From Yuukianura sp. NJ FZ-2021 (Eukaryota), in the NCBI GenBank assembly GCA_046563655.1, contig CM102290.1, forward strand, positions 7,626,001 through 7,690,000: a DNA stretch of 64,000 bases, given 5' to 3'. Positions 3,808 to 32,072 of the stretch are shown one piece after another. The notes below the pieces were generated by a model, which did no database searches, was not told the origin of the DNA, and saw only the letters and a list, made by a program, of their open reading frames with translations. The position numbers and the translations under genes are program-made. How positions within the stretch are numbered: the first letter of the stretch is position 1; each line of letters opens with the position of its first letter.

Positions 3808-4235
3808 CAACCGAATTGTGATTTCTACAACAGGTTGTCCAATAGGGTTTCGAAAAATCTTACTTCAAACAAATTTCTGCACCCATTCTGCACCAATCCC
3901 ATTTACATTACACACAAAAATTACCATAGAAAGTCAGATTTGCCATTTTCAAACAAATTTAGAAACTTCCAGTCATTGGACAACCTGGTGTAGAAAAAGT
4001 TTTTTTTTGTTTACGAACCTCGAATAGAGTAGTTGACCCCGTAAGGTTCGGAATGTTGGGGTAAATAAAGCGAAGTTTCAGAAGAGCAATAAACTGTATT
4101 CAAAGGAAAACCATAAAATCAAAAATAACATCGTAATTGCCAAATGCTAAAATCTGAATCACCAAAAAATACTGAAGAAGTACAAACATCCGTAATTTTT
4201 GGTTGAAAACAAACTGAAAATTCATAAAACTAAAA

Positions 4236-5762
4236 TTATTGCGCTTGGTTCTCTTCGCCATCCGTGCCGTACCAAATGGCTTGAGCATGTTTGAGAGCGT
4301 CCACAATTTCAAAAAATGTTGGACGACCATTTGGAGCATAAGCAAAGCAACGTTCTACTGTTTCCAAAATGTACGGCGGAGCTTGAAGGCTGTCATAGTC
4401 CAAAGGTGTTTTTCCCAACACCAGCGCCTCCGCAACCTGCGAAAATTTCAAAATTGGAGACTATTTTTTAAAAAAATTGAAGTTAGAGGTTAACGAAGCT
4501 ACTTGTTTGCTGGTTTCAAGGGGACTGTAAGGGATTTTTCCTTTTGACCAGAACTCGAACATTAGAACGCCATAGGCCCATACATCTAGCAATTGAAAAA
4601 ACGACATATTTTTGTTAACTTTAAATTCTAGTTAGCTATTGAAAAAAAAAGTTCTAGTATTTCAAATTTCACCGCCTGGTCTGATCTGTACTGGTGGGAA
4701 AGAGCCTCCTGGAATGAACTCAGGCGCTTTCCAACGTGCTCCAGTGATACGTCGAATTGGAATGTCCTTTGGACGCCCACTGTCACCAAAGGGCTAAAAC
4801 ACACAATTAAAAGTCGTTTTACATTCACGGAGTTACTGTTTTCAAAACTTTTTAAACATTGAAATTCAAAATAGGAGCGATTTTAAATTTTACATGTCGC
4901 AGTATTTCTGCTTCATCTTCATTCGTATCCAACGTAAAAGAGAGTCCAAAATCCCCAATTTTGGCGACATTGTTCCTGTTGACAAAGCAGTTCCTTGCAT
5001 GCAGATCACAATGAACAATTAAATTTTGATGGATGTACTTCATGCCTTCGGCGATGTCGAGGCTGAGCTGTGTCCACAGTTTCTAAGAATTTTGAACAAT
5101 AGGTACTTATTTAGAGAACAATCAGAATCAATTGTTTACTTTAATTTGTAAGTACATAATCAGTTCCAAGCTTCCTCTGGATACGTTTCTCAATGAACTG
5201 AAGAAGATCTCCCTTGTCAGCATACTCCATCAACATCCAAGTCAAATGACTTTCTACCAAAAAATTGGCAAATATTCAGTCAATAAGCTAAGTGATTCGC
5301 AACTCAAAATTTCAAAATGGACAAAACATGACCTACCCCTTCTGGACATACCGTTATCCACGCCGTCAAAGGTAAAGCCGACAGCGATTCCAGCCAAGCC
5401 AATAACGTTAGCATGATTCAGTTTAGCCAAACATTCAACCTCTGCCCTTACTTCATCTTCTGTACTCCGTTTGGGAATTTTTACGGTAATCCACTTGGGT
5501 ACCGTGGCGTTCCAAATTTTGGCTAAAATGGACAAAATAGCTAAACTTTTCATGGTTACGACTACCAGCATGATTTAGCAGAATGTACAGTTTCAACAGT
5601 TTAGCAACAACAATATATAAAGTGTTTGAATGTTGCTGAAGATTTGTAAATCTTACCAAGATAGACAGTAGAAAAGGCTCCCTTGCCAATGACCTTGTTC
5701 AAGAACAGGTCATCTTTTGCAAACGTTGGGATTTTGGTCAATTCAAGTACGTTGCCCGCCAT
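4236..5762 (-). CDS. Atypical cytoplasmic tyrosine-kinase/TKL-type protein kinase (kinase domain only, 7 exons)
   Basis: Motifs in order across spliced exons: IGKGAFSTVY, ITVK, EVECLAKLNHANVI, MEYADKGDL, HCDLHARNC, KIGDFGLS, RWKAPE, DVWAYGVL..E, C...PNGRPTF. Confidence 0.85.
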
Positions 5763-13147: not shown

Positions 13148-15116
13148 ATGTCGATCAATGTGTTGAGTCGCCACAATTTTACCGTAACAAGGTGCAAACG
13201 GCACTACCACTTGTGTCTAATTCGTTTCTTGTTGGTTTCAGATGGAGGCTTTGGCTCCGACCTTTCGTGGTCTTGGCATATTCTTTAGTTTTACTCGTGT
13301 TGGTACCTTTTCTCGTATTACGTTGCTTAGGAGAGTGTTCGGGAAAGGAACAGACACAACTTATTGGCGGCATATTCACTCTTCTTGCTCTACCGATCAC
13401 ATTCTGGCAAATTTCGCAACATCTCGTACATTACACAAAACCTTATCTTCAGAAGCACGTTATAAGGTATAGAGTTTATAAGATAGGATACTACTGAAAA
13501 TGAATTTGATGTAAAAAGTGAATGATGAATTGATGAATAATGGTTGTAGAATACTCTGGATGGTGCCAATTTACTCAATGGACGCATGGCTTGGACTATT
13601 AGAACCAAAGATATCGATATATTTGAACAGTCTTCGAGAGTGTTATGAGAGTTACGTTATCTACAACTTTATGAAGTTTTTACTTAACTATCTCAATGGC
13701 GAAATGGATTTGGAAGCAAACCTGGAATTAAAACCACAAGTCCATCACATCATTCCTCTCTGTTGGTTACGGGATTGGGAAATGGTACTTTTAATTCGAA
13801 CATTAATTAACTTTTTTTATTTTATTAAACTTAGTTTAATTATGTTGTGATACGCCATTTACTTACTTCCACCCAAACTTTCTTAGGGCCCAGAATTTGT
13901 ACATAAATGCAAGCACGGGATTCTGCAGTACACCATTATCCGGTGAGGCGACAACAAAGTTTTCTTACCATTTTTCTTAAAAACCATCCAGATTTGTTTC
14001 TACGAATGACGTAAACATGCTCAATCTTAAATTGTTTTTGTTTTGCATCTCAATTTCTCTCTCTTAGACCGATAATGGCTGCAATATCATTTCTGTGCCA
14101 AATGGGTGGTGTCTATGGCGAAGATCAGTTCAGCCCCACCGTAGCTTACCCCTACATAATGGTGGTGAACAATCTTTCCCAGTTTGTTTCAATGTATTGC
14201 CTAGTACTCTTTTACAAAGCAAACAAGACGGAGCTGAGTGATATGAGACCAATTGGGAAGTTCCTGTGTATCAAATCCGTTGTCTTCTTCTCGTTTTTGT
14301 AAGTTCCATTTTGATTTAGTTTTGAACCTTACTGGAATTTCACAAGCTAACTAAGACGATATTGTCATATTTTAGCCAGGAGTTCTTGATTTCAATACTC
14401 GCCAACTTAAACGTCATCTCGGACGTATTCGGTATAACCGATATGGGGGATGTTCGTGAGATTTCTTCAACACTTCAAAACTTTTTGATTTGCATTGAGA
14501 TGTTTTTGGCCGCAATAGCGCATCACCACTTTTTCACTTACAAAGACTATGTGGACATGGCTGCGTCCACTCCAAACTGCTGCGAGTCATTTATGTCAAT
14601 GTGGGATGTATCTGATGTCAAATCCGATCTAGCCGAGCACGTCGGTGTAGTGCGTAAGTTCTTTTAATATTTATTAAATTATAATTTAACGGTATTTATG
14701 TTTATAACCGCTCTGTGGTTCCTCTATTCAGGAAACACTGTCATCAGAAATGTGATGCCTTCAAAAGTTTATCGGCATCCTGGCGGACTAACGGAAGAGC
14801 GTGCAAGACTTTTATCCATTTCTGATGGAGTCGATTACCAAAGCGGGAGTGAAAGTGGACCGGGATCTTCGTCTGGTGTTACTCGAGGACCATTCCAAAC
14901 AGCAAGGTGGGTTTATGATTTTCCGTATCCTAAAACAGAAAAATTCAATTTGAATTCCTTGCTTTCAGATCCGCCAGCCTAAGTTTAGTTGGAGAAATGA
15001 ACCCTGGAAGTGCAACCCAAGTTTCGGTTAAGAATCCAGATGGAAGCATGTACGAAGGCTTTACGGACCTCACTGATTATGACAAAGAAGATCAGCACCA
15101 ACCAGAACATTACTAA
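13148..15116 (+). CDS. TMEM184C: Transmembrane protein 184C (OSTalpha family)
   Basis: RILWMVPIYSMDAW, LRECYESYVIYNF, CKHGILQY, KFLCIKSVVFFSF, LQNFLICIEMFLAAIAHH; multi-exon. Confidence 0.92.
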
Positions 15117-16284: not shown

Positions 16285-17478
16285 ATGGATCTCGTTAAAA
16301 ATGCGAAATCTGTTCCATCGGTACCTGTTGGCGACGTCGGGAGCGAAGGACTAGTGTATGTCGACACTACCACTGTGGCTCCATCACCCTCTCGGGACTA
16401 CTATCGCCTACACGTCACTCATCAATTTGTAAGTATCCGAGACATCTTTAAAGACAATGGTTATTAAATGGTTTCTTTGTTGGACAGGTTCGGATGACTC
16501 GCTGGCCGATTACTCATCGCAGCGCTGCACCGCAACCCCCTGAGGAAACCAAAGTTCCACTGGACGAATTTCATACGCAACATCGTTTGACGTCCGAAGT
16601 GGCACGAATTTTTGGAAAAGACATGGCTCAATATGTGACGGGGCTTAGCCAGGGGCACTACGACACTATCGTTCGACTTCCATTGAAAGTGTTGGCTCGA
16701 ATCATGGAGTATGTTGGTATTGAGTCCCTTGCTAATCTTGCTCCGGTCTGCAAGCGCTTCCATGAGGTATTTATTACCTATGTCTGAAACAGTTTTTCTT
16801 CAATCGTATCCATTCTACGTAAATGTACCAACTTCACTAATTTCAATTTCTGACTGTTTAGGTGGCTACCGGAAATACTCTGTGGGAATCATTCTGTACT
16901 ACTTATTCTCACAATGCTCCGGGATACGATTCACTTACTGCTGTTAAAGATTACACACGTTTTGGCTGGAAAGCTGTCTTCTTGGCGTTTCGCCTTCAAG
17001 ATAATGTAAAAAGTCCTTTTCTAAAGTTTTGATTTGATATTGTTCATTTCATTATTTGTCTTGCCAGATCCGCCCGGGGAAGAAGCTGCGACTCGGCACT
17101 GCCAAAACTGGTGGTTTGGCGAAGGTCATTGATGGTGCTGGGGAAGGACTGGGACCTATTGCTCCCGAAACTTCGGCAGTACTTCAGGGCGAGATTCCGA
17201 AGGGGTATAAGTCACTTCTCTACAAGCCGTTGGGCACACCGCAGTCGCTGAAGGACTTGAGCGAACAAGCCAAAATGGGAGCAGCAGCGATGTTCCGACG
17301 AGGAGTTGCGAAGGAAGGGGATGCTGCTACTTCCAAAAAAGTTGTGAAGACCTTGGAACGTTTGTATCTTCGTCCTCCTCCCGGGTCTCAGGCTACTCGT
17401 TCAAGACTTTCGCGCAGTCTTCAGGACGTTCACGGAAGCTCGGAAGCAGAGGACAACCTCACCCGCAAAAGCAACTAA
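16285..17478 (+). CDS. FBXO36: F-box only protein 36-like
   Basis: N-terminal APSPSRDYYRLHVT...EVARIFG region, then F-box RLPLKVLARIMEYVGIESLANLAPVCKRFHE...LW. Four exons. Confidence 0.75.
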
Positions 17479-19366: not shown

Positions 19367-22300
19367 ATGAATAAGACAAAGTTCAATTTATCATTTGCTG
19401 GATGTGGATTTCTGGGAATTTATCATGTCGGAGTCGCTGCCTGTCTCAAAAAGTACGCACCACATTTAATTGTTAACAAGGCTTCTGGAGCTTCCGCTGG
19501 AGCAATTGCTGCAACGTGTCTACTCTGTGATGCACCTCTAGGTATGTCAACTTGACATTGTCATCATGGTGTCAATCTTAGTAATTCTTAGTAAATGTAT
19601 GATGCAGAGTTGTATGCGGAATGTAACTAACTTTGATACGGACTAATGATGTATTCTCAACCAGCAGGTAGCTTAATTTAGTTGAAGATGCTTGACAATT
19701 GACAAGAGTTGTGTATTGTGTTTAGAATTTGTATCGTATTTTGTCTTGACAAGTCCAGTTTGGGTAAGTTCCTAACCAACAATGTTACGTATTACACCAT
19801 TCTCATGTTGACCGTTGGAAATCTTCCTTTTAAGTTTTAATCCTGAGACCTTTGTGATATTTTTAGATCGGTTGTTGTTTTTTCTATTTTTGGGTTATAT
19901 TTGGGCACGTATACCGTACAATCGCGTCTACTGGACACACACCCCCACTCTCAACCAACCGGAATTGCGTACAACTTAAGTGTTAAGTGTCAAGCGATAA
20001 GAAGAGTAGGACGAGTCGTTTCGTTTTGGTCATTTATCAGGACATAAAGCTCCAAGTGTCAACTCCATTGTTCAAACCAGATAACGTCATGGCCTTCACA
20101 ATAAGACTTAAAATAGTGGTCTCAATTCTTCCAGCTACTTCATAATGGCCCATTTAGGCTTTAAATTCAGCGAAATGTACAATAGACTTTTATTCATTCG
20201 AGTCATTCGCCATTCATTTCTGAAGAATCAAATTGCACATTAGACGAAGATTCTGTTCTCTTGGAAGAAGACCTCTTGGAGTCAGTACTTTCCTATTGGG
20301 AACGACGAGATAGCGCTTAATGACTATGTTGTTGAGCTTTAGGCCATGGATGTGCGCATTTAGAATGTGTTATTAGAGACTACTGTCGAAACTGGACTGA
20401 CTAGTATTCCTTATGATAACTATAATGAAATCTACTAATTAAAGAAATTCGGTTTTCTCAGGAGGTACGTGACTTCGGATAGGCCGCGGTTAGCATTGCA
20501 AAGTCAAAAACCGCAACCAGGAAGGCATTCAACTAAAGTAGGTCTGTGAATTTCCACTTCAAAATTTTGCATCCCTGGTTGCAACTATTTAACGACGACT
20601 GGCTTTGATGTTATGTTCTCCGGTCACTGGAGTCCGGTGTCATTCTTAAAAAAATCATAAGTTAGTGTCAATGGCCCTCCAAGTTCATTCTACCTATCAC
20701 TAATTTCCACATGTGGAGGACTTGGTAGCAAAATTTAGAAAGATGCAAAATGCTAAAATTCTGTCTGGCTCTGCGAAATATTTATCAGACACGGTTTTCC
20801 ATTGACTTGTTGAATGAGTCTGCACTTAAGATTAACTTTGACTATTAGAGTTTGGGTGAAAAAAATCTTAAGATAAGTCGAAATACGATTAACAAGACTT
20901 CCAAGGACTCTCTTATACTTAAAGTGAAAGGGAATTAAGAGAAGCATTAATTTTTAAGGTTAGCATACTCAAATTAGTGTATTTCAGCTTGTCTGGGTGT
21001 TTGTTCAATGTCAACCGCCCATAAAGTTTCAAGGGAGCCGTGAGTAATTGAGGTTATCCAGATTCGCAAAAGGAATTTTGGTTTTCGAAGGGCATCGGGT
21101 GATACCCTAAGGTCAATTTGTGAATTGGTTCACTGTTTCGAAGAGAATGATTGGTTGATACTTAAGAATTATTGGAAATATTGTCTGATTAATCATTTTG
21201 TTTGTCTTGCAGGTCAGATCACTCAAGATGTATTACAGATCGCAACTATGGCAAGAGCAAAGTCACTGGGACCCTTCAGTCCTTCTTTCAACATTTCCAA
21301 AATTTTACGAGATGGACTCACGAAGGTATAAACAGCGGCGTATTTAGTGATGAGGTGATGAAGATGACGCTCCGTCATGGTGGTGTGGTCGTCAACACGA
21401 CAAGATTTCAAGTTTAAAGCAGTCCTTCGTGACGACTTTTGTGTTCTAGCAATGTCGTCACAGGTTTTCACTGCTCTTTGTGTACTTAAACACCACATGA
21501 CGCGACGTTCATCTTAATTGACCTTGGCTGTTGTTATGCTACGTAGAAACAGAGTTTTTGGGATAAAAAATGTAACACATAAGTAGTTACACAATTTCGA
21601 AACATTACTCTGCTTGTATTGTTAATGTTTTTGCTTCGTTTGTCCAGATTTTACCAGAAGATGCTCATTTACGTGTCAGTGGGAAACTCCATATCTCTCT
21701 CACACGAGTCTATGATCGTCAGAATGTGATTGTTTCACAATTTGATTCACGCGAAGACTTAATACAGGTATGTTATGTCTCGTTTAAGACTCATTTACTT
21801 TATGTGCATGTTGGAATGATGGGTAGTGTTGGTTGGGTTTTGTAATTTTGGAAATATGGTGGCTGGTGCTACGTAGTGGGGAACTATACCAGCTCAAATC
21901 AGCGGAATATTGCAGCATGTTTAGTAGTATTGGTGGGAATTTTTATTATACCTATGAAATTAGCAAACGAGCATGTTTCATGTGGTATTAAATATTATGG
22001 GTTTTACCTTTTACCAAATTTCCGATGTACTTTTTGAGAATTAACGTTAACGAGATAGAGAATTTCGGATAGAGCGGATGTTCGCAGTAGTTTGTTCTGG
22101 AAATGGGATGATCTGAACGAATTATGTATGTTTTCAAGGCTGTTATTTGCTCAACCTTTATACCATTTTTCTCTGGAATGGTTCCACCGAGGTTTCGTGG
22201 GGCAAGATTTGTTGACGGTGGATTTACAGGTACTACTTATCAGGTTTTGAAACGCATGTCTTGGACACCTTAGGTATTCTTACTTTTACAAGGTCATCTG

Positions 22301-24658
22301 ATGATAAATTTAATCCATTGTTAGACAATTGCCCATCCATCGATGAGCACACTGTGACCATCTCACCGTTCTGCGGAGAGTCAGACATTTGCCCAAGCGA
22401 TGGAAACTCACTTCTTCTTCTTGTTCGTTTTCAATTTACTTTCTACTCAGATCAATTGCCAGCCAGTGTTTTCATCCAAACGATTCTCAACCTCGGAAAT
22501 TTCAAAATTTCAATTTCATAACCCTATTCCTCAATTTTGAATCCTTGGCTATCCGCTGAGCCTTTCAAGAGGTTAAGCATTTTGGTTATTTTTAACTAAG
22601 CTAGATGTTAGAGTGCATGGCTTTGCCGACATTTGTATGTGCTTGAGTCTGTTGTTCACCTAATTGCCCGGGAATATTTCAAACCGATTACTTTTTACTA
22701 ATTACTATTGCATTTGCATGATGCACTGTGTGATTCCCTATAAGAAATGGTATTATTTTTGTGTATTGTTTTTATTCCGTTTAGGCAATTTTATGTTCTG
22801 GCTTTGTTCCGGTGTTTTCTGGATGGCTACCACCAAAATTTAAAGGCGTTCGGTACATGGATGGCTGCTACTCGGACAATTTGCCAATTCTGGATGAAAA
22901 CACACTCACAGTGTCACCATTCTGCGGCGAGTCAGACATATGTCCTAGGGACAAAACAGTCAATTTAATGCAGGTCAGGACGACAACTTGTCACTACTAA
23001 TAACTGTGTTGTTTTTACTTAATATTGCAATCAGGAACAGCTTAAGTTTTCACTCTTGATACTAGAGCACAACACAAGCTTTTTATTGCCGGTTTTTCAC
23101 AGCCAGCTCAAGAGTTATAATTTTGTAATTCGTTTTTTAAGGAGACTTTTGCTAATGCCTTTCATTTCTCGTGTTTTCTGAAACCATCTTCCTGCAATTC
23201 CTTCATGTTTTTTGGTGCAATTTCAACTGAATCTGCAAAACTTTGCGTTGATAAGCCCTACCCTCAAATGTATCCTAATCCACCTCTTCATTGGCAAATC
23301 CCATCAGGACAATGTCCTGTCCTCGGTTGAGTCTCACTGGAAGAGTTCACGGTCACTCGCTTCTTAGCATTTAATTAAACATTTAGCAACTCTGTAAGGA
23401 ATTGCAGTGAACCTAATTTGTTTTTTTCTTTGGTTAGGTGAACTTATCCAACACTTCCATAGAGCTCTCAAGCCAAAACTTATACAGATTCTCAAGGACG
23501 CTTTTTCCACCAAGAGCTGAAGTTCTTTCGAGCATGTGTCAACAGGGATTTGACGATACACTGAGATTCCTAGCTAGAAATGACCTCATTGGGTGTACAA
23601 CGTGCATGTCCCTGGATACGGCTCTTCCATGCCTTGGAGATCAGTTGGACAAAATGGCGACGCGAAACTACGAGAGAATTATGTCAGAAGAATCTTGTCA
23701 TCAGTGTATTGTTACAAAAGAGGTACAAATTCAAACACAAATGGAACGGAGTGAATTTTCAGGTTAATCAATCGTGTTTTTTTGTGCTAGGCTGCTTTGC
23801 AAGATGGACTTCCAGATACAGTCGTAAACATTCTGCAAGACGCCATTGAATCGGGCAACAGAGGACTGATTAACTGGCTCTTTTCTCACCGAAGCGTTCG
23901 GATTCTGAGTTTAATGACGCTACCTTGGATCATCCCGGCAGATATGGCCTATGCTACTGGACTCAAAGTTTTTGAAACGGCACCAAAGCTCTCATATAAT
24001 CTCAAAGTTTTAAGCGAAGCGGTCATCCAACTGCTAGCTCAAACGTTGTCTAGGCTGTCTCCTTCAGCCTACACAGCAAAACTGACGTGCCAATTGGCCG
24101 TAACTGAATATGGTACGTTTTAACTTTTCCATAAGCATTTCCATTAACTTTTCCATTAAGCGTAAGCATTTAAGCATTTTCCATAAAAAAGTTATTGTTG
24201 AACGGGCTAACCACAGTGTTTTGTTTTTCAAAATTTCAGAGGAAGATATCGAGGCGCCTGCAGAAAAATGTCTTTCCCGAAAACCTTCCATTCGCAGCAA
24301 AATGAACTTTGAATTCACACTTAACATTGAGAATAGGTAAGAATACTACTTGGATTGGAATTTAAGTTTTTAAACAAGTTTGTGACTGTGTGTAAAACTA
24401 ATGTATACTTGTTTTGTGTTTAGCAGAGAGTCTCCACTGAGTCGTCGTAGTTCTTTGGTTGATTTTGAAGATGGAGAGGACACATTTGAAAGATTTTTGA
24501 AAGTGACAAGGAACCAGGAAGCTGTTCTGACGTCGTACTATTTGAACTATGACAAGGTAGACATTTACAATGTCAACGAAACATTGAACAATAGATCCAA
24601 AAGCCTTTCCTCTTCTCCCACCACTTCTCTTCCGCCATCAAGAATTTATGAACTCTAA
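19367..24658 (+). CDS. PNPLA2: Patatin-like phospholipase domain protein 2 / adipose triglyceride lipase (brummer)
   Basis: [21 protein letters not shown] nucleophile elbow, [26 protein letters not shown] motif, [25 protein letters not shown]. Includes the alternative cassettes at 22139-22422 and 22785-22973. Confidence 0.95.
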
Positions 24659-25320: not shown

Positions 25321-28300
25321 TTAGCATAAAAATTGGAATGTGATAAAAATAGTAAAAATGTTTGTAAAAACTAATGGCATGATGCTGAGATTTTGAACTG
25401 AAGTTTGGCCAGCAGTACAGTCAACGAGAGCCATGTTCCGTAGGAACGTTTTTCCCAAGTAGGGATGATAATGTCGCTCCTCCGGCGGAATAACTTGAAG
25501 TAGCTGAGCAGCGTCTTGAAAGATCAAATCACTGTAAGGTGCTGGTGAGTAGAACATTCCAAAACTGGAAATCCAAACAAAATCAGTAACAACTTTGAAC
25601 ACAACTTTTTTTAAACAGTGATTTTCCTTACTTGAAATCGTCTTCAATTTTTTTCCCATAGAACTGTTGCGCATAGAGAAAGAGATTCATAATAGATTTG
25701 GCCTCTGTTTCATTGTAGCTGTCTCCACCGCGGATAACAACGGCATTGGCCTTGACCTTGCCCAAGTTACAACGGTCAAACGCCGTGATCGGACTCCGCG
25801 TGCCATCACGACACAAAAGCTCGTAGTCCCCAGATAGCAAGTTCCTAGCCCAGGTTTCCTTGCGCTTTCCATCCGCAACTTCAGCAACAGTAGTGTGCTT
25901 CACAAAGGCAACTTGACCTCCGCCTTCAACCAAGCAGCGCAGGGCACCTTATGAATTAAAATAGCAAACTAGATTCATACAGTATCCATGACAACCATCG
26001 CTGGCGGTAAGACTTATGCTTACCAATGTTTCCATAGAAACCTTCGGAAGCGTCTCTCTTGCAGTAGGAGTAGCTGGATCCATGACAAAGGTCACAGAGA
26101 TTAGTGTGTTCATGCCAAGTGTTGTATTCGTTGCTCAACGCTCCAGGGACACAAGACTTTGTAAAGTACTGGGATGCAGCAGTAACGGAGTCACAACCGT
26201 ATCTTCTCATTCGGCCACTTGAAAGCAAGTAGGCCATAGGCACAACCCAACCAGCAGCATGGCCAATTCCAGAGTGACAGGATGTTTTACCTATGTTAAG
26301 AATTAAATTGTTACCCATTGTTCTAAAAAATATTTTGGAAACAATTTTTACCTTTGAGGTATGTCAACTCCGTATCTGCATCTCCCTTGTAAGCAACTGC
26401 AACAGCATAATACTCTGGTTCACCTAAGTTGTAAATCTCGGAAAGGACTGGAATCAACTGGAAAAAGAGCCCCGCCTTGTAAACATCGCCAGCATCAAAT
26501 ACTCCTACATCGGCGTCCCTTTCAAATTATAGCAAACTTTTAGAAAGTCTTGCACGCACTGAGAGAATTTTGTAAAATGCTAACCCGTTTCTTATAGCTT
26601 GCATGCAGTTCATCTGACTGTGACCTCGGTAGCAACTCATTTCTGGTTTCAGGAGTTGGTCGTTCAATGCAGTCTGTGAATTCAATTAATGGTGAATGAT
26701 TTACTTTGAACTGACACTGAAGAAAATATTCTGCATACCCTCATCTTTATGCATTTTGTCATTTCAGCATCCGAAGTGACGCATAGTGACACGCGTCCAA
26801 CCGGACAAGCTCGAGTATCCAAAATGTGTTTCATGCTTTCTTCTCCCAAATACTCTGTATAAGTTTGCGCTTGTTCTGGAATGGCCCGGAGCTCTACCGT
26901 CGCATCCTGCAGATGATATAAATCATAATAGTTTAATACAAAAAAAAGCAAACAAGAAAACGGTTTCTTTACCGAGAATAACTGGTTGCTTCGATTTCCG
27001 TAACGGGGATATGATTCAAAGAGTCTTGGAGGTTGAACGACTGGAACCGGCTTCTGTCCAAATGAACCAAAAGGTTGCTGAAACACAGGAGATTGTGATT
27101 GGAGATGATCAGCGTCAGGTCCAAATTTTCGAACAAGATTCTGAATAAACGTTTGATACTTGGTTCGTAAAGTCGTAGATTTGGCAGAGGATGTGACGAC
27201 GACATGAGACGGGAGTTCTCCCCAGTTGCATGTTCTCCATTCTTCGATATTCATTCTCTCTCCATTGGGACACAGGAGGTTGTAAGTCTCTTTGAACTCC
27301 CCCAGTGTCATTTTATTTCCATTGGAGGACATCATCGTATCTGATCCATACTGCCTGTCGTCTTGATTCAGTCGAGAATCTGTGGCTGGGTTGAATTGCT
27401 GCTCTTGAGGTGGAAATCCAAATGGACGAAATGGACTGCTAGTGGTTGAAGTTGTGAAGAAATTTGAACTTGATCCGGGGTAGTTACTTCCTTGACTCCC
27501 GTCAGTTCTTTTGTTAAAATATTCGAGGGCGCTTGAATGTTTGACAAAGGCGATGTCACCTTGAGCGAAGAGACAGGACAAGGCACCTTGGTAGCCAGCG
27601 TAGGGATCATTACTGGTACACTTCACTCCGGGAAGGTCACTTCCGCAAATCTCACAGAGTTTGTGAGAGTTGTCCCCCAGGGGGTTGTACTTGTCAGAAA
27701 GAGAGTTCACTGCACAACTTGGTCCGAAAAATTCAATGGCAGACTTCACATGGTTGTTACAATCTATGGCCTCCAACCCACCATCTTTCATAAGCTAAAA
27801 ATATTTCTCAAATTAAATAAAACTTATGTTGAATTACAAAATAACACATAAATAAAAACAATTTCTCCATTCTAAGACCAGCTTATCTTACCTTGCTCAC
27901 TGGTATAACCCATCCCGCCAATGTTCCGACTCCAGCGAAACAAGCCTTCTTCCCTCTCAGATCATGCAGTGATCCCAGATGAATTGACCGTTTCATCACG
28001 GCGACTGCGTACAACTTTTCACTTCTTCCAAAGTCCTCCACGCGGTAAACTTCGGATAAGATCGGAACCAGACTGTGGTAGCGCCCTCCAACAAAAACTT
28101 CTCCAGCATCCAATGTCGTCACATCCGCCATGTTGTTGTCAAGCAACAACATGCATTCGTCTTTGTTATAAGCCTGAAACAAAATAGAAATTGTAACGAT
28201 TAAAATCCAAATACGACGTACTTCCTTACCTGAACACAACCAAGCTGAAAACTTTCTGCTCGCGGATTGGTGTAACTCAAATGGGGATCAGGGTGAGCAG

Positions 28301-28539
28301 TAGTTCGTAGATAATCTGCAATCGATTCACACTTGCTCTGTTCCTCTGGATTTACCGTGCACCATACGACGCTAGTATCGTCCCTTTCACTGTTAAAAAA
28401 TTGTTGCGTCTCCACCAATGATAGTCCTAAAAGACATTCAAATCCTCATTAAAAGTCAATTATAACACTTATTTTAAATATTTTGCTTACCAAAAACAGC
28501 AAGGAATAATTTCCAGAAAAGATTGTGAAGAGGTAGCAT
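25321..28539 (-). CDS. Tsf2: Melanotransferrin (Transferrin 2), probably GPI-anchored
   Basis: Signal peptide, two transferrin lobes (VVWCTV, LDAGE, YAVAV, AGWVIP, YQGALSCL, DIAFVKH; second lobe LDAGD, AAGWVVP, QVAFVKH, YELLCRDG) and a hydrophobic C-terminal tail. Confidence 0.93.
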
Positions 28540-29393: not shown

Positions 29394-32072
29394 CTACTTG
29401 CCTCTGCGAATCTTCTTGAAGTCACCCTCTTGATTTGACAGCGATCCCATAATGGAGTTTACCTTTCGCTTTCGACTGCTATCCCTGTAAAACACACATG
29501 GAAAAAAATTAGCCTTCCAGAACTATTCGAGATGAAAATGCAAAACATGGTGAAAGTTTTCGTTTTCCGAAGTGTTTTGATTTTAGAAGCAACGTACAGT
29601 TGAGCCTGATGTTGTTGTTGCACCCTCGCAATAGTTGCACTGTCTTTCTTGAGTTCCCGAATTGCACCCTTATGTTCTTGCTTGATTTTGTGAGCAAGAC
29701 GATCACGATCTTGCTTATCCCTGGAGCCCACACGTTTCTTTCCGGTAAACCTGACAAAATAAGTTGAATCAGTCAAGTCAAACAGTGAGAGAATTGGATT
29801 AAGGTAAAGTTATTGGACACTTACGTCTCCTCAAACAATGGCTCATATAAACGCAGAGGTTTCGGTAGAGCAACTTTCGTTCGTGGCGGTTGTCGTTGCG
29901 GTGAAAAGTTGTCGATTTCCAGAATAATATCACCCAGTTTTGTTCGAAGTTTTTCCATGTCAAAATCTGAAGGAGCAGAGCTGAATGATTCTTTTCCTTT
30001 CAAATTGCTCAAGACATCTCTGATGGGTTTGAAGATCTGAATTGCAGATGGGTAGGCCGAGTACAGCTTAAAAAGTGACGTGATTAAAGACAGAACGGGG
30101 AAGATAAGCTTGTAAGTTGAAGCTGAACCGTTGTGGACTTCGTTGAAGGGAAACGAGACGTACTGATCTTGTTTTGGAAGTAACTTCGGTTCGTCTAGCC
30201 ATGTCAAAACTGAATGAAGACATGTTAAAATCTCGGGCATGTAACGCTTTGTCTCCCGAGTCATCTGCAAGATTTAAGTACTAAGTTGATTGAATGATTG
30301 CCGTCTTTTAGGAAATTAGTTTTTAAAACTTACCAAATAACCACAGTAGCAGAGGAGGACCAGTCGGTAAGCCATATTTCCATCCTTCACCTTGAAACTA
30401 GTCACAACACTAGCTAGATATGATAGTACTGGCGAATGCAGCTTCCGCTGCATTTTGCTACTGAAAAGCCGGAAGCACAGAAACAGTAGAGTAATCTAAG
30501 ACAAAAGAAACGTAACTCAATTAACGGTCAAATTACTACAACGGTTGTTTGCTTTTGTGTCACTTACATCGGAATCTGTAAACGTTTTCCCCTCATGGCC
30601 TTCCTCTAACATCGCATGACAGTCTTTTACTTTCGAAATCAAATACTCTGCCAGTCCTATTTTTTCTGGACTAATTTCCAATATTCGATGAAAAATTTCC
30701 AGAACTGAATCCAGGAAGCACATTCGGTCGCAGATAGTATCGTTTGACTTGGCCGTCTCAGTATTTAGGTGAAGGAGATAGTCGCATAACTTATATAGAT
30801 GTCCACGATGGGATGCTATATGAAGATTGATCAATGCTATGTTGACACGGACAAATTGATCGCGACTATATCGTTGATTTGGGTGCAAATTGTTGTGTTC
30901 GAGAACTTGTAAGTATTGGTCAAATGAATCCGGAATTTGAGTTGGAATTTTAAGAGCAGGATATGCTTCTGTTTCATGCTGCAAATCGCCGCTAATCCCA
31001 GCGGAAGTATCAACCGGTGCAACTCTGGCTGGCTTCGCTTCGAACTTCAGCTCACGTACAATTTGTCCAAAGGCTTTATCGTGTGGACTCAAATCGGTGT
31101 CTGCTTTTTTTGGTTCTGGTGCTGATTTCACAGTTGAGATCATGCTTTCGATTTCTTCTTTTTTGGTACGAACAGTATGAACTAAGGAAAGGACGTTGTC
31201 TTCTTTGAACAAACTGTTCAAGTTGCCAACTTTCGACAAATACTCATCGCCTTGCTTCGCTTTCTCTAATTTCTTGGCTTTGTTGCTCAAAATTAACTCT
31301 TCTATTATTTCTTTCCTCGATTTTTCTCCGGATTCAGTATCTTCCTTTGGCTTCATCTTTAAAAATCCACCGAAATGAGCCTCGCCGACAAACTCCTCTG
31401 AAAATGTGTAACTCATTTACCGTATTCGTTGCTGATATTGAAATACGTTAATTTTTTTTTAAATTACTGTCAAGGAGTTCATCCTCAGATCCAGATTGAT
31501 CTCTCGGGTCATCATATCGCTCAATATCCTCAATAGTCTGTCCTTTGTGTGTAAGTCCCACATCATCATCATCCGGAAGATTGAAGTCGACCCGCTATTC
31601 ATGGTAACATTCAATCATGGTAAAATGTAACGTCATTTACTTTGCAGACTTAACGGAATTACTTTACTCGAAGTCAAAAGTCACCTTCTTATACTGCTTA
31701 GTCTTCTCCTTAGCGATTCTCTTTGCTATTTTTTCCTCTTCTGGAACTGAACTTCGTTCGCCAATACGAGAGTCGACAACAACACTCGTTTTTTTCCTAC
31801 GCAAAAATTCGCTTACAAGTCCGTCACGTCTCTAAATAAAAATGTCGCCAAATAAGTAACGGTAACATCATACCCCAAATCCAAATACAGGACTGCATAA
31901 CATTATTTATTACCATTGACGGAGCTTTCTCCCAAGTTCTTCCAGCTCCCATTTTTCCAGTACGCCTTGTATTCTTGTCAGTTGGTGGTCCTGTTTTCTT
32001 AACCTTACCATTGTTCTTCGGATTAGGAAACGTTGCATGTATTTTTCGCTTCACGACTTTCTGTTTCTTCAT
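29394..32072 (-). CDS. NOP14: Nucleolar protein 14
   Basis: VVVDSRIGE, FNLPDDDDVGLTHKGQ, HFGG, KSRKEIIEELILSNKAKKLEK, RYMPE, PKPLRLYEP, EHKGAIRELKKD and C-terminal MGSLSNQEGDFKK. Confidence 0.9.

Follow-up and report, generated by a model that had tools for sequence, protein, structure and literature searches.

In this study we analysed a 64,000-nucleotide stretch of the genome of Yuukianura sp. NJ FZ-2021 (GenBank assembly GCA_046563655.1, contig CM102290.1, positions 7,626,001 to 7,690,000 of the forward strand; hereafter the window, numbered from its first letter), which contains a gene that, by homology, is the orthologue of the lipase brummer/ATGL (PNPLA2) in its springtail-type form of 510 residues. 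ATGL/brummer is the rate-limiting enzyme of animal fat mobilisation, and the catalytic dyad of the patatin fold consists of the serine of a GXSXG motif and the aspartate of a DG-x motif. In the window the segment with this aspartate is present twice, as cassettes A and B, which are probably two mutually exclusive exons, clustered side by side and derived from tandem duplication of a 189-nucleotide exon. Exon 3 would be spliced to either A or B, and then to the next constitutive exon, producing two enzymes of 510 residues that are identical apart from 63 residues.

A complete model of the gene, guided by tblastn matches, has 9 exons in the B form or 10 in the A form, and every intron is GT-AG. 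Its parts relevant here are as follows, with a slash marking the exon-intron border.

19367 to 19541, + strand: exon 1, with the start codon, the glycine-rich loop and the GASAG (GXSXG) nucleophile motif; donor G/gtatgt.
21213 to 21325, + strand: exon 2, with 79-82% tblastn identity to Orchesella, Folsomia and Allacma proteins; ag/gt borders.
21648 to 21767, + strand: exon 3, the final constitutive exon ahead of the cassettes, ending in phase 0; donor CAG/gtatgt.
22139 to 22229, + strand: first exon of cassette A, 91 nucleotides, coding for 30 residues that end in DGGFT and for the first base of the next Asp codon; acceptor ag, donor CAG/gtacta.
22230 to 22324, + strand: intron within cassette A, the gap between its two exons, 95 nucleotides, phase 1, GT-AG, splitting the Asp codon.
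22325 to 22422, + strand: second exon of cassette A, 98 nucleotides; acceptor ag, weak donor CTT/gttcgt.
22785 to 22973, + strand: cassette B, a single exon of 189 nucleotides whose product has Trp14, DGC-Tyr and the C-terminal residues N-L-M-Q; acceptor ag, donor CAG/gtcagg.
23438 to 23722, + strand: first constitutive exon past the cassettes (VNLSNTSIE...), entered in phase 0 and placed by homology to springtail proteins.
23791 to 24112, 24240 to 24336 and 24427 to 24658, + strand: last three exons, with the stop codon, from the homology model.

The modelled protein has 510 residues with either cassette, 573 with both and 447 with neither, the frame being open in all cases. Exon 1 is 90-93% identical to springtail proteins, contains the nucleophile serine in its GASAG motif, and scores 36.4 bits against the Pfam Patatin profile PF01734 (cut-off 27.7). 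Cassette B by itself reaches 18.7 bits, under the cut-off, over positions 155-188 of the 191 in the profile, which include the DG-x Asp motif; the Folsomia isoforms X1 and X2 score ~75 bits over residues 9-173. A protein search with cassette B gave 580 matches at E <= 0.001 (584 candidates), the nearest named ones belonging to Orchesella dallaii (92%), Allacma fusca (89%) and Folsomia candida (81%); the matches are named PNPLA2, Pnpla3, ATGL or brummer at the source, and triacylglycerol lipase activity is predicted from these source names only. A sequence search for solved structures of close relatives returned 0 matches. Drosophila brummer and mammalian ATGL/PNPLA2 resemble the window gene in the patatin domain, the GXSXG serine and the DG-x aspartate, whereas the sampled higher insects differ from it in having a single exon of the A type at this point, with DGA in flies.

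The coordinates of the two cassettes given in the initial annotation of this stretch are exact when the window is re-read and translated, and the equal length (91 + 98 = 189 nucleotides for A, the same as B), the absence of stops and the phase 0 at both ends hold for A and for B; the peptide of 62 residues listed for A lacks its final Leu, as A encodes 63. The two cassettes share 35/63 residues and 111/189 bases. In tblastn comparisons with springtail brummer, both halves of A match one common segment (E 1e-9 to 1e-17), and B matches with E 8e-36; because both halves of A and B fall on the same segment, their resemblance is not due to chance, and the proposed duplication of the catalytic-Asp segment is confirmed in the sense that A and B are true homologues at one position of the gene. 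The swapped span starts ~36 residues before the end of the patatin domain, takes in the catalytic Asp, and continues for ~27 residues up to the conserved VNLxNTSIE. The first exon of A is homologous to cassette A of Allacma, of Folsomia X2 and of two springtail-like metagenome loci, L002 and L004; the identity of B to L002 is, as with Orchesella dallaii, 92%.

The arrangement recurs in other arthropods. The mutually exclusive pattern is already present in the public RefSeq annotation of Folsomia candida, where the isoforms X1 (P0018) and X2 (P0128) of a gene called Pnpla3 at the source are 559 residues each and differ at 25 positions, all of them in residues 138-200, X1 carrying B (DGC) and X2 carrying A (DGG). 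The Folsomia pair is like that of the window in the gene, the position of the cassette, the A and B types and the equal length of the isoforms; it is known as annotation only, and differs from the window in that A of the latter is additionally split by the 95-nucleotide intron. Cassette scans were carried out with the first exon of A or with cassette B alone as the query, and the scan of metagenomes with B returned 29 loci. Three of these have A followed by B, in the same order as the window, with each cassette 189 nucleotides long and bounded by ag and gt.

L002, springtail-like: exon 3, A at 4336-4524, B at 5001-5189, next exon.
L004, springtail-like: exon 3, A at 4164-4352, B at 5001-5189, next exon.
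L003, mayfly-like: A at 311-499, B at 716-904, next exon.

A spliced contig, L001, runs without introns from exon 3 through B into the exon that follows. Four neopteran-like loci (L009, L014, L015, L016) have both flanking exons around one A-type cassette and no B. The protein comparison covered 125 proteins, of which 123 have a cassette match; two matches were found in 7 of the 123, six being models with two full cassettes in tandem and the seventh having one and a half.

Ephemera danica: first cassette DGG, second DGC.
Allacma fusca: first cassette DGG, second DGC.
Folsomia, GenBank model: first A, second B, with a translated intron in between.
Cherax, two isoforms: first full, second full.
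Portunus: first full, second full.
Notodromas: first full, second half.

A larger search with cassette B among 1.84 billion representatives gave 639 matches and no further double-cassette gene, the matches in two stretches being Notodromas, fused vertebrate-like tandem genes, or weak second matches. Overall, the comparison suggested in the initial annotation, of brummer loci across arthropods, shows that the pair is kept in Folsomia, L002, L004 and L003, and the A/B arrangement appears to be a feature of springtails and mayflies that is lacking in the higher insects examined. In a model from Ascaris lumbricoides (P0126) the cassette region is repeated near-identically in tandem, which is more likely an artefact of assembly or annotation than a case of alternative exons.

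The notion that splicing swaps half of the active site is overstated: the exchanged segment holds the catalytic Asp, but this residue is kept in both cassettes, as DGG in A and DGC in B, and the third residue of the motif is tolerant. The 215 cassette matches in 208 proteins comprise 125 with DGG, 71 with DGA (flies, as far as the holders are named), 18 with DGC and 1 unclassified; the occurrence of G, A or C among functional-looking relatives is what points to this tolerance. With the Asp retained in A and B alike, and DGA at this place in flies, the difference between DGG and DGC is not in itself an active-site switch. More plausibly, the isoforms would differ through five type-specific positions, described below, and through the C-terminal tail of the cassette. 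A comparable case is ketohexokinase, in which, according to PMC9741552, a catalytic residue lies within the swapped region and is retained by the two isoforms.

Purifying selection acts on A as well as on B, as pN is lower than pS in each set of orthologous cassettes (Nei-Gojobori counts: pN 0.13-0.30 versus pS 0.84-0.97 for A; pN 0.075-0.20 versus pS 0.64-1.00 for B); the initial annotation would have given up cassette A had it shown no such constraint across relatives, and for A the constraint is evident. Between the window and L002 dN is 0.22 for A and 0.079 for B, and A evolves at ~2 times the rate of B in the window lineage. The springtail and mayfly sets (8 A, 10 B) are fully separated at positions 28 (G/C), 29 (F/Y), 35, 60 and 63: DGC-Tyr, Ile35, Asn60 and Gln63 are found in 10/10 B and 0/8 A cassettes, and Trp14 in 9/10 B. 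B, with these residues, is the slowly evolving form and the one in the spliced contig L001; A has DGG-Phe, evolves faster and ends in a 5' splice site that is weak, and it probably represents the form that is regulated or minor. The two forms may differ in enzymology or in regulation.

Maximum-likelihood analysis of an alignment of 42 cassettes over 63 columns recovers a B clade (90/88) of springtails, mayflies, a barnacle and two other sequences, and an A clade (91/88) with springtail A, mayfly A, all 11 higher-insect exons and 3 paralogues. The topology gives moderate support to a history in which one duplication would have preceded the split between springtails and insects, with subsequent loss of B in the higher insects. 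B-type cassettes (DGC-Tyr) are also seen in the barnacle Amphibalanus (P0039) and in the transcript-like L006, P0022 and P0024, which hints that the B type may be older than hexapods. It is conceivable, though we would hold this more tentatively, that the hexapod (possibly pancrustacean) ancestor had two ATGL/brummer enzymes by way of the exchange of the catalytic-Asp exon, that springtails and mayflies still have them, and that higher insects, Drosophila included, kept A only. Three further sequences (P0123, P0163, P0138) represent a separate, more divergent PNPLA gene with a springtail A-type cassette region (DGGFTDN...); in the tree they and the springtail A cassettes belong to one group of nine rows (91/98) whose branching is unresolved, and over their whole length P0123 and P0163 have springtail brummer as the nearest relative (49-55% identity). 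This gene may be an A isoform that turned into a gene of its own.

Two groups of observations weigh against the interpretation proposed here, the first with regard to the origin of the cassettes and the second with regard to their use. As to origin, the tree has only 63 columns, and the A and B branches both stay below the starred threshold; the cassettes of decapods lie outside the two clades, without a resolved placement; and in approximately unbiased (AU) tests, whose hypotheses were named after the tree was seen, a clade of all springtail cassettes is not rejected (p = 0.08, or 0.06 with the paralogues). The last two points would fit a history in which springtails, mayflies and decapods each obtained their A/B pair by independent duplication, or in which the pairs were homogenised within lineages, and not one ancient event. 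We regard this as unlikely: the B-specific residues listed above are shared by springtails and mayflies with no exception other than one at Trp14, A precedes B in the window as well as in each of the 3 genomic loci with the two cassettes, and the AU test disfavours a single clade of all mayfly cassettes (p = 0.0275).

As to use, the sole A-only sequence found is a RefSeq model (Folsomia X2), and no A-only spliced contig was found when the transcript-like proteins were inspected among the best 120 of 801 matches, while B-only ones were (P0021, P0013, L001). The donor of A is weak. The RefSeq isoforms Cherax X2 and X6 and Portunus X2 hold both cassettes in tandem, so that double inclusion may occur in some lineages. 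No mechanism that enforces exclusivity was found when frame and nonsense-mediated decay, steric block and competing RNA pairing were examined: inclusion of both cassettes or of neither leaves the frame intact, the intron between A and B is 362 nucleotides long, enough for splicing, and the duplex energies of whole introns lie within those of shuffled sequences (z from -2.2 to +1.7; the best, between introns 1 and 2 of L004, was reached by 1/40 shuffles). The intact frame, the length of this intron, the decapod isoforms and the lack of an enforcing mechanism would fit cassettes that are not strictly exclusive, A being optional beside a constitutive B, or both being included, with proteins of 510 and 573 residues. 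This reading seems to us quite improbable, because the RefSeq set of Folsomia has an A-only and a B-only form of equal length, two catalytic-Asp strands would be hard to fit in one patatin fold, and the tandem models of Ephemera, Allacma and Folsomia (GenBank) come without isoform label and may be predictions without transcript support. The decapod sequences themselves (P0006, P0007 and P0047 from Cherax, P0008 from Portunus) have DGG in both tandem cassettes, and another Cherax isoform, 63 residues shorter, has the first cassette only; their tandem isoforms represent either real double inclusion or wrong models.

Returning to the reading of A and B as mutually exclusive exons, it is backed by the cross-species comparison, while we infer the use of A and strict exclusivity in the window species. 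The earlier proposal of two lipases from one gene can be retained to the same extent, on the strength of cassette homology, conservation and the equal-length A and B isoforms of Folsomia, its part concerning the use of A in the window species being conditional. With regard to control, the A donors read gttagt in L002 and L004 and gttcgt in the window, all with T at +3, and the B donors follow CAG; the consistent weakness of the A donor suggests that B would be the default and that A would need activation. In Dscam1 and 14-3-3, arthropod clusters of mutually exclusive exons are governed by competing RNA pairing. The window is like these genes in its tandem alternative exons, but unlike them in that docking/selector pairing was not detected, the duplex energies being no better than those of shuffles. 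Inverted repeats are present in 21768-23437. The three springtail-like loci share one short element in the intron ahead of A.

21841 to 21850, + strand: TGTAATTTTG, a 10-mer in the intron between exon 3 and A, candidate intronic splicing element, shared with L002 (4306-4315) and L004 (3887-3896).

A 10-mer of any kind shared three ways occurs in 3/500 dinucleotide shuffles, and we consider this candidate a weak lead. As a pairing element it was rejected, because a 26-nucleotide probe around it pairs with the downstream introns no better than shuffled sequences in 6/6 tests; if real, it is more likely to be a protein-binding element. A near copy of it lies at 23116-23125 of the window.

The initial annotation had stressed that one of the alternatives is itself a linked pair of exons. 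The split is real in the window, but it is not a feature of the system: A is uninterrupted in L002, L004, L003 and the genomic fragment P0139, which lack the 95-nucleotide intron at the same point, and L002 has there an unbroken CAG/AC site. The intron is accordingly a local one, not conserved across the loci compared, and on this alignment it is specific to the window lineage, where A would have gained it at a CAG/AC site. If the intron is retained, a stop is met at residue 181; with its gain, therefore, A is usable only if this intron is removed too. An origin of the intron from a repeat or transposon was considered and set aside, as no second copy exists within the window. In a fragment of 89 residues (P0214), the parts ...SPFCG and ESDICP of a Folsomia-like B cassette are separated by ~25 additional in-frame codons; this insert looks like a short intron inside B of another springtail-like genome, and split cassettes may then not be unique to the window. 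That A of the window species is a dead or dying relic, never productively spliced, in a gene that makes the B isoform alone, could be argued from the weak donor, from the stop in the retained insertion and from the fact that it is the fastest-evolving copy relative to L002, but is very improbable given that the insertion ends exactly at GT..AG and that, once it is taken out, the conserved Asp codon and the open frame are regained, that both halves are stop-free and keep DGG and DNCPSIDEH (the same in P0139, with one change in Allacma), that the end branch of this A in the tree measures 0.16, against 0.28 for A of each of Allacma, Folsomia and L004, and that L002 and L004 have the same gtt-type weakness.

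Full-text searches of the literature gave no description of alternative exons for ATGL, brummer or other PNPLA genes. Tandem duplicated exon substitutions, in which same-length homologous exons are used alternatively, have been catalogued and described as mostly ancient, and in that catalogue the terms PNPLA, patatin and lipase have 0 occurrences each (PMC9741552). Conserved alternative exons across the catalytic Asp would mean that early-branching hexapods tune ATGL/brummer by splicing, which fly and beetle models cannot reveal because cassette B is missing there. If the ancestor did have two enzymes, all insect brummer work would describe one of the two, the strongly conserved B form would be expected to accept another range of substrates or to respond differently to co-regulators, and with the springtail-like A-type paralogue this division of labour would have been reached through gene duplication. 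The gene also offers a clean case for studying what regulates an exclusive cluster of two exons if the choice is imposed by neither frame nor pairing, and how gene duplicates and splicing isoforms replace one another; as a laboratory animal, Folsomia candida makes the idea testable.

Four neighbouring open frames of the window were assigned to Pfam families.

14326 to 14667, + strand: Ostalpha-type solute transporter.
16452 to 16787, + strand: F-box.
25628 to 28445, - strand: Transferrin, just downstream of the lipase gene.
29821 to 31416, - strand: Nop14.

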